Shown one piece after another: positions 31,497 through 35,114 of a DNA stretch of 64,000 bases (the first letter of the stretch is position 1; each line of letters begins with the position of its first letter). Both the position numbers and the translations under genes were made by a program. The DNA is taken from assembly GCF_036507355.1 (NCBI RefSeq), contig NZ_AP027877.1. The stretch is one strand, 5' to 3'. A model generated the notes under the pieces. The model had not been told where the DNA came from, made no database searches, and saw only the letters and a program-made list of their open reading frames with translations. This stretch comes from Escherichia coli (lineage in GTDB: Bacteria > Pseudomonadota > Gammaproteobacteria > Enterobacterales > Enterobacteriaceae).

Positions 31497-31587
31497 AATG
31501 ATCCTGTTTGTACTGTCTTTTTATAATTAGTATGGAAAAGGTAACTCACATTGCCGTCGATCTATAAACTGAATCGCCACGGATAAT

Positions 31588-32400
31588 CTAGACACTTCCG
31601 AGCCGTTGATAATACTGGTTTTCATATTCTGTCGGTGACATCTGATCGCTGGAACCATGCCGACGCTTACTGTTATAAAACATTTCGATGTAATCAAAAA
31701 TATCGCTGCGGGCTTCTTCCCGCGTTCCGTAGATCTTTTTCTTTATCCGTTCGCGTTTCAACAACTGGAAAAAGCTTTCTGCAACCGCATTATCATGGCA
31801 GTTACCGCGACGGCTCATGCTGCCCTCCAGGCCGTGTGATTTCAGGAACGACTGCCACTCATGGCTTGTGTACTGACTGCCCTGATCCGAATGAACCAGC
31901 ACCTGTTTTTGGGGATTACGGCGCCATACAGCCATCAGCAGTGCGTTCAGGACAATGTCCTTTGTCATCCGGGATTGCATGGACCAGCCGATAATTTTGC
32001 GTGAGAACAGATCAACAACCACGGCAAGATACAGCCAGCCTTCGTGGGTCCTGATGTAGGTTATGTCCGTTACCCAACGCTTATCCGGAGCATCCGGATT
32101 GAACTGTCGCTGGAGCCTGTTGGGCGACACGATACTGGCCTCGCCTTTACGTGCCCGCGGGCTCCGGTATCCGACCTGAGCCTTTATCCCGACACGTTTC
32201 ATCAGTCGCCAGACTCTGTTCACTCCGCACTGTTGCCCGCTGTCCCGCAGATCCAGATGGATTTTGCGATAACCATAGACGCATCCCGATTCCAGCCAGA
32301 ACTGTTTAATCTGCCCTGTCAGCCTCAGGTCTGCCTGATGGCGTTGTGAATGCGGCTGCTGAAGCCAGGCGTAAAAACCACTGGGATGAACATCCAGCAC
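31588..32400 (-). CDS. IS3-family transposase OrfB (DDE domain)
   Basis: 270-aa ORF with DITY...D...E integrase-core-like sequence. Confidence 0.85.
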   Translation of the reverse strand: MLDVHPSGFYAWLQQPHSQRHQADLRLTGQIKQFWLESGCVYGYRKIHLDLRDSGQQCGVNRVWRLMKRVGIKAQVGYRSPRARKGEASIVSPNRLQRQFNPDAPDKRWVTDITYIRTHEGWLYLAVVVDLFSRKIIGWSMQSRMTKDIVLNALLMAVWRRNPQKQVLVHSDQGSQYTSHEWQSFLKSHGLEGSMSRRGNCHDNAVAESFFQLLKRERIKKKIYGTREEARSDIFDYIEMFYNSKRRHGSSDQMSPTEYENQYYQRLGSV

Positions 32401-32456
32401 CCGACAGAGCAGGCGAACAGGCCAGCAACAGGTGTTGTCACGGATAAAGGCGTACC

Positions 32457-32741
32457 TCAGTCGGACAGCTTTGCGAAGTACGCCGCGGCTTTTTTTAATA
32501 TGTCCCGTTCGTCGGTAACCCGCTTCAGCTCTTTCTGGAGACGGCGGATCTCGGCCTGAGCATCTGACTGTTCTTTATTAGCGGAAGAATCCGGACCGTA
32601 CTTCTTTATCCAGGCGTAAAGGCTGTGGGTGGTGATATCGAGACGTGTTGCAACGCTGGCAACAGAATAACCGCGATCAACAACCTGTTTGACTGCTTCA
32701 ATTTTAAACTCTTCGGGATAACGCTTACCGCTCATGGGCAC
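32457..32741 (-). CDS. IS3-family transposase OrfA (HTH)
   Basis: 94-aa ORF with HTH and leucine-zipper-like C-terminus typical of IS3 OrfA. Confidence 0.85.
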   Translation of the reverse strand: MPMSGKRYPEEFKIEAVKQVVDRGYSVASVATRLDITTHSLYAWIKKYGPDSSANKEQSDAQAEIRRLQKELKRVTDERDILKKAAAYFAKLSD

Positions 32742-32798
32742 CTCTCTTTAAGCCATCTTAAATGACTCTGAGGTGTCTGTTAAACCCGTGGCGATTCA

Positions 32799-35114
32799 GA
32801 TTGGGTTGCTTCCTTCATCAGCGACATTGACCGAGACGGTGTTTGCTGCATTCTCATTGGCGAGCACACTATTATTGCTGGCAGATAATGTCGCAATTTT
32901 TGCTGACTGCGGGTTGGCGTCGATGATAAAACCAGCGGTATGCAAATCTTCATTCCAGTTTTGCATTAATAGCTTCGCAGTAAGCCCACTGCCTTTGGTA
33001 TAGGCGGTATAGGTTGCCTTATAGACGCCATCTGCGGTTTCTTTCCAGTCTGTAGTGACACCCGGTTTCACATTGTCGATGCTGACTGCGGTATTCAGTT
33101 GCTGTTTTTGCTCCTTAACAGGTTTGTCATTTTCATCTCTCAGTTCTACCGTTACCTCGATAGGATTGCCGGAGAGATAACGGTTCTTATCAATCTTAAT
33201 TGACGAGTGAGTTCGGGATGACGAAACAGAAATGATATTCACCACGGCGGGGGCTTTAGCCGCATCCACACCGTTCAGCTGTGGCATAAGCGTCAGCGTG
33301 CCAGACAGCGCTCCTGTGGTCAGGACTTGGGTATAGCTTCCGTCACCATTATCTTTCCAGTCAGACAGGGTGATGTCCTGAACACCTTCGTGACGCGTCG
33401 AAAGCACCAGCCCGATAACAGGATTACCTGCTGCATCATGAGCAATAAAAGTCAGTGTGGCGGTTGAATGGGAATCCGCGTTCAATGTTTGGGTACTTAA
33501 TGATACTGAGGAATCTTTCTGGCTTAGCGTAGGTGCCTGAACGACTACCATGCTCTGTTCACGATTCGAAAAATTGCCTTTGACATCTTCAGCGGTGACT
33601 TCAATCGGCCAGGTGTTATCGGTTTCTGGCGTACTGGTGAACCGGTAACCCGGCAGGGTAACCAGAATATCTTTACCCGTTGTAACCACTTTACCACCGG
33701 CAGCTTCCAGAGCGGTGGCTTCGACGTTATAGCCTTTCAGGGCATATTTGGTTTGTAGCGACGAAACCAGTGATTTCACTTCTCCTGACTTCCCTGTCAC
33801 GGGGTCTGTCAGGGTCAGGCGAACCAGTTCTTTTTTGCGATATTCCAGAACGATGTTGTTGTTGCGATCCACCAGATCAAAACGGCTGCCTGCAAGGCTA
33901 CGCCGTGCATCGACTTCATTCGGGTCAAGCTGTTTCTGCATCGCGCTGCCAGGTTGCCAGGTAAAATCGACGGCAAAACGGGTGTCATTTTCGCCCTGTT
34001 TACCCTGGCGTTGCTCCGCGCTGAAGGTCATCAGCGGGAAGGGGGTATAGTTAAGTCCAGCGGTTATGGCATGAGGATTACTTTGCCGATCATCTTTATC
34101 GAACAGGGCCACTTCATCGCCATAATACTGTTCATAGACCAGTTTACCGCCAAGGTGCGGCCAGGCGGGTAGCCAGCCTTCTGCGTGTACATCCCAGCCA
34201 TTGGCCGGGCGTGCTTCATAATCGTTGTCCAGTTCAGGTGCGCTGCGCCAGTTGGTCAGTCGCAAATAGCCGTTACTGCTTAATTTTAGATAGTCGCGCC
34301 AGTACTCCGCGCCAATGCCGGCGCGGGAGTGGTAACGGCTAAGATCGTGGTCGAAAAAGAAGTTGATGCCCGACATCCATGTGGGAGTGAAATGACGCCA
34401 ACCTAAGCCGTTGTTAATCTGCGTACGCTCGTCAGTACGATGGAGAGTATGCTGACTGAAAAAGAGATTATCAGGCGTTTCATACCACGGATGGAGAAAA
34501 TCGAACTGGGAGTTCTTCAGGCTAAAATCTTCATCCACGCCCAGCGTGATTCTTGCGGTACCGAAGCGGCTTAACCAGTCTGTCATTGCGCCTGAAGCCT
34601 GAGAAGAGGCCCATCCACGCGCCATATTTGCCGCTTGCTCGCTGTTCATATCCTCGGCGAGCAGAGACCCGATTTGCTGTGAAGTACTGGCTATCTGTTG
34701 CTCAAGGTTGCCACTGCTATTACCCGGTGGCGGGGTTAAATTATTTTCACTAACTTGTGCCGGGACATCCAGTTCATCACCCTGGCGGACATTATCAAAA
34801 CCTCGAGCAAACGTACGAAACTGGTTGAGTTTGCGTAACTCAGCCACCGAAATACCGAAACGTTCGGCAACGCTTTGGGCCGATTCCAGCGCTCCAAGGG
34901 TGTAGGGCACCGTATTGGCATTTGCAATGGCAATTTGTGCAGGAACTGGTTGTTGGGTTGCGGCGTTTACCACACCTTGTGCTGCCGCAGCCATAGGGAA
35001 CGCAAGTTGAGTTATCAGGCAGATACCCGCAGTTAAGCGGCGTAGTTTAATTCCCATCCCGCATAAGATTTGTCGGTCATTTATTTCTTCTCCACTTCTC
35101 TTCTTCGTAGCCAT
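32799..35114 (-). pseudogene. yeeJ: Inverse-autotransporter adhesin YeeJ, N-terminal about 770 codons only, truncated by the IS3-family element
   Basis: Starts MATKKRSGEE with LysM and intimin/invasin-type beta-barrel; the reading frame runs straight into the IS end at 32798; no continuation beyond the IS. Confidence 0.8.

Follow-up and report, generated by a model that had tools for sequence, protein, structure and literature searches.

A deletion bordered by an ISEhe3-like insertion sequence in the yeeJ-shiA region of Escherichia coli, and the same element inverted at one of its junctions in close relatives

The DNA considered here, a 64-kb stretch of Escherichia coli contig NZ_AP027877.1 analysed as a whole (the window), carries the shikimate transporter gene shiA, a truncated copy of the adhesin gene yeeJ (yeeJ') and, between them, a single insertion sequence (IS) which by its likeness to a plasmid copy appears to be an isoform of ISEhe3. 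The IS adjoins two pieces of the ancestral locus that are not adjacent to one another in reference genomes; it borders a deletion in which most of yeeJ and all of yeeL were lost. Such an IS-bordered deletion in a gene that is often truncated is a known kind of lesion and belongs to ordinary genome decay. It carries little weight on its own, being a known IS at the edge of a deletion, and the adhesin gene concerned is dispensable and in most E. coli already absent or broken. The only unusual point, and the one of wider interest, is that the IS is flipped at the identical junction in close relatives.

The deletion, its junctions and the element at its border

The extent of the deletion was established by aligning the window with K-12 (NC_000913.3, 2042000-2058000), with strain A30, which has a long yeeJ allele and an intact yeeL, and with four other genomes. 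The shiA flank of the IS ends at K-12 position 2053570 and the yeeJ flank begins at 2047253, in codon 753 of 2,339; nothing from the interval between these points is retained. The gap amounts to 6,316 bp relative to K-12 and 7,240 bp relative to A30, a difference which matches the 906 bp separating the length variants of yeeJ (PMC5595812). What has gone is the 3' 68-71% of yeeJ, the entire yeeL gene and 241 bp of the 314-bp yeeL-shiA spacer. An earlier note on this DNA, made from the window alone, had taken the IS to mark a deletion of yeeL and the 3' two-thirds of yeeJ, with no continuation of yeeJ on the far side of the element, and the alignments bear this out; its figure of about 5 kb for the loss was too low. 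The nearest relatives either share the junction of yeeJ' with the IS or have lost more DNA, and no short yeeJ without an IS was found among them. The window arrangement is absent from 5,426 complete E. coli genomes.

Because the transposase gene reads toward lower coordinates (minus strand), the end of the IS at 32798 is the one with the left terminal inverted repeat (IRL), and that at 31570 the one with the right repeat (IRR). On the IRL side the yeeJ frame runs straight into the IS, as had been noticed, and stops at a TGA provided by the last three IS bases. The frame (open reading frame 32796..35189, minus strand) has 797 codons in all, and would specify a protein of 781 amino acids if started at an upstream ATG at 35141. 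On the IRR side the IS abuts the region upstream of shiA, again as the note had it, at a distance from the start codon (ATG at 31496) of 73 nt rather than 74. The flanks, ...ATAAAC-IS-GATTGG..., present AAC against GAT, confirming that the window copy has no 3-bp duplication, and it thus lacks the 3-4 bp target-site duplication that is a criterion of the IS3 family. A clean duplication of 3 bp flanks ten other copies (TAA, GTA, TCT, TAC, TTT, CTG, AAG, CTC, GAA, ATA); its absence from the window copy is a result of the deletion and not a family trait. Copies without a duplication are common for this IS, and it is the comparison with reference genomes that provides the real evidence for the deletion. 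Only five of 24 full-length copies in species-representative genomes show a 3-bp duplication, and where one genome has several copies, the flank of one may pair with that of another, a sign that the copies probably recombine often.

The junction of yeeJ' with IRL recurs elsewhere. Two contigs assembled from short reads (GCA_905398585.1 and SRR17480487) encode precisely this truncated YeeJ of 781 aa and continue for 26-75 bp into IRL at 100% identity; as two independent short-read assemblies reproduce it, the junction is real and shared.

The boundaries of the IS are fixed by the fact that unrelated E. coli chromosomes and plasmids contain the whole 1,229 bp, end to end and 100% identical, and they agree with the 1,229-bp IS3-family element and the 13-bp perfect terminal inverted repeats described in the earlier note. 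The termini (TGAATCGCCACGG...CCGTGGCGATTCA) match at 13 of 13 positions and, when extended imperfectly, at 26 of 35, with TG...CA at the ends. In the window TGAATCGCCACGG has two matches only, at 31570-31582 (+) and 32786-32798 (-), and none of 100 shuffles yielded two or more. The length (about 1.0-1.4 kb in the family), the TG...CA repeats, the orfA/orfB arrangement with its -1 frameshift and the transposase model (NCBIfam NF033516, 338.7 bits against a cut-off of 160) are all those of an IS3-family element. In the Pfam scan the orfB frame also matches PF13276 and PF13333, and RefSeq annotates identical copies with a 'programmed frameshift' and a joined coding sequence of 1,148 nt. An Rfam scan of the IS returned no frameshift-stimulating family above threshold.

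The element had previously been left without a name. Over its 1,229 bp it is 98.9% identical to NZ_MF344574.1 97275-98503, the only IS3-family element within the first 100 kb of the record of pT5282-Ct2, an IncC plasmid (MF344574) that carries ISEhe3 insertions (PMC6872532). ISEhe3 is a member of the IS51 group of the IS3 family, with ISfinder entry AF327445 (PMC10425158). An isoform would be expected to have at least 95% nucleotide identity to the named element; by its likeness to the pT5282-Ct2 copy the window element is probably an ISEhe3 isoform, named through that copy rather than through the prototype AF327445. Elements of this type are widespread: the window element matches 2,740 plasmid records, chiefly from Escherichia, Klebsiella, Enterobacter and Citrobacter; ISEhe3-like elements occur on Pantoea plasmids as well as on those of Klebsiella, Escherichia and Enterobacter; and among species-representative genomes from across the Enterobacterales, 112 stretches contain the IRL end of the IS.

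The inverted copy in relatives and the history of the window arrangement

Strain G4/9 matches the left half of the window at 99.9% identity, and no complete genome matches the right half at more than 99.0%; exact look-ups with the MtfA sequence for the closest intact relative returned only genomes of about 98.3% identity or a common allele. In G4/9, GCA_000461235.1 and ERZ27273564 the same IS is present at the same nucleotide on the shiA side (...CGTCGATCTATAAAC joined to TGAATCGCCACGG; window 31569/31570) in inverted orientation, such that IRL faces shiA; the IS is 100% and the flanks 99.9-100% identical to those of the window. At its far end the IS of ERZ27273564 adjoins a 431-aa gene, of which the 3' part remains, belonging to an integrative and conjugative element (ICE) at asnT, and those of G4/9 and GCA_000461235.1 adjoin a remnant of yedN, in a loss of about 42 kb that begins in yedN, takes in the fli genes and mtfA and extends to yeeJ and yeeL. 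ERZ27273564 has a further IS copy in yedN, in direct orientation, and because its two copies are direct repeats the G4/9 arrangement is simply the product of recombination between them. GCA_019297395.1 resembles ERZ27273564 except that a further 35-37 bp beside IRL is missing, with a 2-bp TG microhomology (fetched locus 6002-6039), which brings the IS to within about 36 bp of the ATG of shiA. The lineage is thereby shown to hold several identical IS copies that recombine. Among about 160 fetched loci, no flanks joined to opposite IS ends were seen besides those of the window and these relatives.

Ordinary recombination cannot convert AAC joined to IRL into AAC joined to IRR, because crossing-over inside the IS leaves each flank with the IS end it had. 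The explanation that we favour, with about an even chance of its being right, is a history of two copies that became joined at their identical 13-bp tips. The yeeJ'-IRL junction would go back unchanged to a simple insertion of the IS into yeeJ; that of IRR with the shiA flank would have arisen later, through a second ISEhe3 copy at the AAC target 73 nt upstream of shiA, and this second copy would be the inverted one still present in close relatives at that exact nucleotide. IRL and IRR begin with the same 13 bp, so that in two copies of opposite orientation the tips that face the same way would constitute direct repeats; a tip-to-tip deletion would remove one copy and the DNA between, keep the flank junction exact to the nucleotide and reverse the IS relative to that flank. 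The window arrangement would in this way follow from two copies, one at shiA -73 and one in yeeJ. The same reaction could have run in the reverse direction, with an arrangement like that of the window and an oppositely oriented copy in the ICE gene giving rise to the ERZ27273564 type; alternatively, one copy could have flipped in place between its two tips and then undergone ordinary recombination, with the same result.

Tip recombination of this sort, whether deletion between inverted copies or in-place flip, would fall outside the usual IS repertoire and might be triggered by nicks that the transposase makes at the tips; we advance it tentatively and hold it doubtful. It would explain why, at one nucleotide upstream of shiA, IRR is found in one isolate and IRL in four others. 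Use of the same 3-bp target twice, in opposite orientations and within one clone-level lineage, is unlikely, because the target logo (125 IRL flanks, 32 IRR flanks) amounts only to a weak A/T preference at the middle duplicated base, N-W-N, and other lineages use other positions. If it does occur, the tip-to-tip reaction would be an added route by which copy-out-paste-in elements delete DNA.

Several points weigh against this history. Its predicted precursor junctions, IRR-AACGAACCTTATGAG and IRR-ATCAATGATCATACC, are absent from the Joint Genome Institute (JGI) metagenomes and from the 5,426 complete E. coli genomes. We know of no precedent for 13-bp tip recombination with this IS, and recombination on 13 bp across kilobases is rare unless stimulated. 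A hybrid IS is unrecognisable, all copies in the lineage being identical. The duplication is absent from 19 of the 24 full-length copies in species representatives, and its absence alone therefore says little about history. Lastly, the IRR-shiA junction is seen in the window only; no other assembly has it.

This uniqueness, together with the opposite orientation in the relatives, is also what an assembly artefact would look like, the IS having been placed in the wrong orientation in the source assembly or two copies having been collapsed to one. We consider such an error very improbable: the yeeJ'-IRL junction is independently confirmed, a single copy could not have IRL at both flanks, and the junction sequence reaches well past the shared 13 bp.

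The main rival to tip-level joining of two copies is a one-step adjacent deletion, in which the IS entered yeeJ and its IRR then attacked the AAC near shiA in the same chromosome, by intramolecular or 'sloppy' strand transfer, with loss of the DNA between, the inverted copy of the relatives being an unrelated insertion at the same site. The structure is compatible with this, having one junction of the insertion type, one new junction and no duplication; deletions made by IS629, another IS3-family element, start at the IS end and have been explained by imprecise strand transfer (10.1101/2023.06.07.543989); GCA_019297395.1 lost its further 35-37 bp directly beside an IS end; and on pT5282-Ct2 an ISEhe3 insertion is accompanied by a 24.5-kb deletion (PMC6872532). 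However, the IS3 family moves by copy-out-paste-in, in which the donor is regenerated, and the authors of the IS629 study themselves call for an additional reaction to account for deletions (10.1101/2023.06.07.543989). The one-step route needs, moreover, a second independent hit of the same 3-bp target in the opposite orientation in one clone-level lineage, with no more preference than N-W-N to guide it. The simple yeeJ insertion that would be its precursor was not found in the JGI metagenomes or the complete E. coli genomes. We put the chance of this route at about half that of the two-copy history. The earlier note had proposed an IS-mediated adjacent deletion: that the deletion is bordered by the IS stands, and the one-step event becomes one of several routes to it.

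A classical two-step history would place the second copy at shiA -73 in the same orientation as the first, RecA-dependent recombination of the direct repeats then removing one of the copies along with the interval. Copy-and-paste IS elements usually cause deletions in this way, its product would be indistinguishable from the window structure, and the same lineage displays it between the shiA and yedN copies, in the 42-kb loss of G4/9. What recombination of direct copies calls for is a same-orientation copy at the other end point, and the copy in the relatives is opposite; the sole copies seen at that site, in four assemblies, all lie this way round, so that two independent insertions at one target would again be needed. 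We therefore judge this route improbable, somewhat more so than the one-step deletion.

The IS might, finally, have inserted into a pre-existing deletion made independently of it, or into a naturally short yeeJ allele. IS-free deletions of yeeJ do exist: ISHS7 has one of 4.9 kb within the gene (positions ~5239-10140 of the K-12 interval are missing), with a junction (fetched locus 11060-11130) that shows 3-4 bp of microhomology and lies 16 bp from the break point of the window's yeeJ, and no more than about 40% of genomes have an intact yeeJ (PMC5595812). But a simple insertion should have left a 3-bp duplication in place of AAC and GAT, and no IS-free allele with these end points occurs in the 5,426 complete genomes; we give this explanation scarcely any credence.

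The interval in other lineages and the effects of the deletion

In at least five E. coli lineages ISEhe3-like elements (90-100% identical) have independently hit the yeeJ-yeeL-shiA interval, in most cases with a deletion, and the interval is either a regional hot spot or a tolerated sink; because the hits are independent, the locus is a useful lineage marker. NCTC11023, S43 and EH10-18-47 each have a different pair of junctions, none with a duplication, and GCA_900448615.1 has a simple insertion at the 5' end of yeeL, duplicating GTA. EH10-18-47 had looked like a smaller deletion sharing the window's yeeJ junction; this proved to be a BLAST gap artefact, its IS being 90% identical and 27 bp away. 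A sequence hot spot at shiA -73 itself was also considered and is unlikely, given the weak logo and the use of other positions in the interval by other lineages. As a separate observation, another G4/9 copy, between hsdS and mcrB (fetched locus 2892-4190), has flanks that resemble the shiA target (ATAAAC, 3-4 nt, CCTTAT); the resemblance may be fortuitous or may hint at a target motif.

The YeeJ remnant keeps the IAT_beta domain (residues 125-400, E = 1.9e-112) and, as Invasin_D3/Big_1 matches in Pfam, some two to three Ig-like domains. The remaining 1,586 residues of K-12 YeeJ (2,339 aa), the C-terminal lectin-like domain among them, are deleted, which leaves the inverse-autotransporter architecture of barrel, Ig-like repeats and C-terminal domain incomplete and makes yeeJ' a remnant; judged from its domain content, the stub of barrel and partial passenger is probably inactive as an adhesin. 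In a published survey yeeJ was intact in 38 of 96 genomes (~40%) and truncated in 15 more (PMC5595812). With yeeL deleted, the strain is without the YeeL glycosyltransferase.

The shiA gene lies downstream of the transposase gene and in the same orientation (Table 1), and its transcription would rely either on the 73 nt of its own upstream DNA that are left or on read-through out of the IS. A promoter scan detected the IS's own IRL promoter and nothing convincing for shiA, neither in the retained 73 nt nor in K-12.

Table 1. Coordinates of features at the yeeJ'-IS-shiA locus (positions in the 64-kb window)
Feature	Position	Strand	Remarks
shiA (shikimate transporter)	30180..31496	-	intact; same orientation as IS transposase gene
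Leftover of yeeL-shiA spacer	31497..31569	-	73 nt of 314 bp; sole native DNA left upstream of shiA
Intact ISEhe3-like IS (IS3 family)	31570..32798	-	1,229 bp; 100% identical full-length copies elsewhere
IRR tip, 13 bp	31570..31582		adjoins shiA upstream DNA; inner sequence ATAATCTAGACAC marks the IRR end
orfB frame (DDE/rve integrase core, HTH_21, rve_2/3)	31588..32400	-	PF00665, E = 1.4e-33
orfA, 92 aa, HTH_Tnp_1	32457..32735	-	Pfam PF01527, E = 4.4e-20
Frameshift site TTA AAA AAA G (A7)	32489..32498	-	programmed -1 shift giving a 382-aa OrfAB fusion
IRL tip, 13 bp	32786..32798		adjoins truncated yeeJ; last 3 bases are the yeeJ' stop
Truncated yeeJ (yeeJ')	32796..35057	-	753 codons from K-12 start; maps to K-12 yeeJ nt 1-2259
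tRNA-Asn (asnT)	35431..35503	-	upstream of yeeJ; ICE attachment site in relatives, empty in window

The ICE that occupies asnT in the relatives (fetched loci ~6300-18500 and 7212-21105) carries type IV secretion genes and a cargo cluster coding for an AfsA-like protein with a carrier domain, a ketoacyl synthase, an aldo-keto reductase, a major facilitator superfamily transporter, a PHP protein and a LysR regulator; such a set, of the kind that makes butyrolactones, is unusual for E. coli. The window itself has four tRNA-Asn genes (14714, 25220, 27041 and 35431), and Rfam matches to EFASI RNA (21470-21603, on an island beside tRNA-Asn), RseX (46309-46398) and DsrA (54735-54821). It also contains a 768-bp copy of IS1 at 18827-19594, with a 9-bp duplication (TACAATGTG), which interrupts a Drt4-like antiviral reverse-transcriptase gene (open reading frame 17794-18831) that is intact in G4/9. 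Between sbcB and dacD lies a 4.7-kb block (2360-7050), absent from G4/9, with a GtrB-like glucosyltransferase, a GtrA-sized open reading frame, one of 488 aa and one for a parallel beta-helix (tailspike-like) protein; it looks like a prophage-derived O-antigen modification module.

Comparison with known elements and deletions

The window element resembles ISEhe3 (AF327445; first described in Pantoea agglomerans pPATH) in its 1,229-bp length, its TG...CA ends, the helix-turn-helix domain of orfA, the DDE core of orfB and the -1 frameshift. Simple insertions of ISEhe3 make a 3-bp duplication, whereas the window copy is without one, its flanks being derived from two different sites. For yeeJ itself the nearest comparison is with the truncated alleles of Martinez-Gil et al. 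2017 (PMC5595812), where truncation is likewise frequent and two length variants are seen; those truncations are frameshifts, whereas that of the window is an IS-bordered deletion which also removes yeeL. Deletions formed by IS629, also of the IS3 family, with the IS-excision enhancer (IEE) begin at the IS end and involve microhomology (PMC9943667; 10.1101/2023.06.07.543989). IEE, however, mostly removes the IS, whereas in the window the IS remains; no iee gene turned up in the window, in which no search aimed at iee was made.

Among deletions that leave the element in place, the E. coli long-term evolution experiment reportedly saw IS150-associated loss of rbs, and Shigella is known for 'black hole' deletions bordered by IS1 or other IS elements. 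In both these cases, as in the window, a resident IS stays at the border, non-essential neighbours are lost, there is no duplication, and the end points vary by lineage. The window differs from them in one respect: a neighbouring lineage has the IS inverted at the same junction, an outcome that a scheme of insertion plus recombination does not predict.

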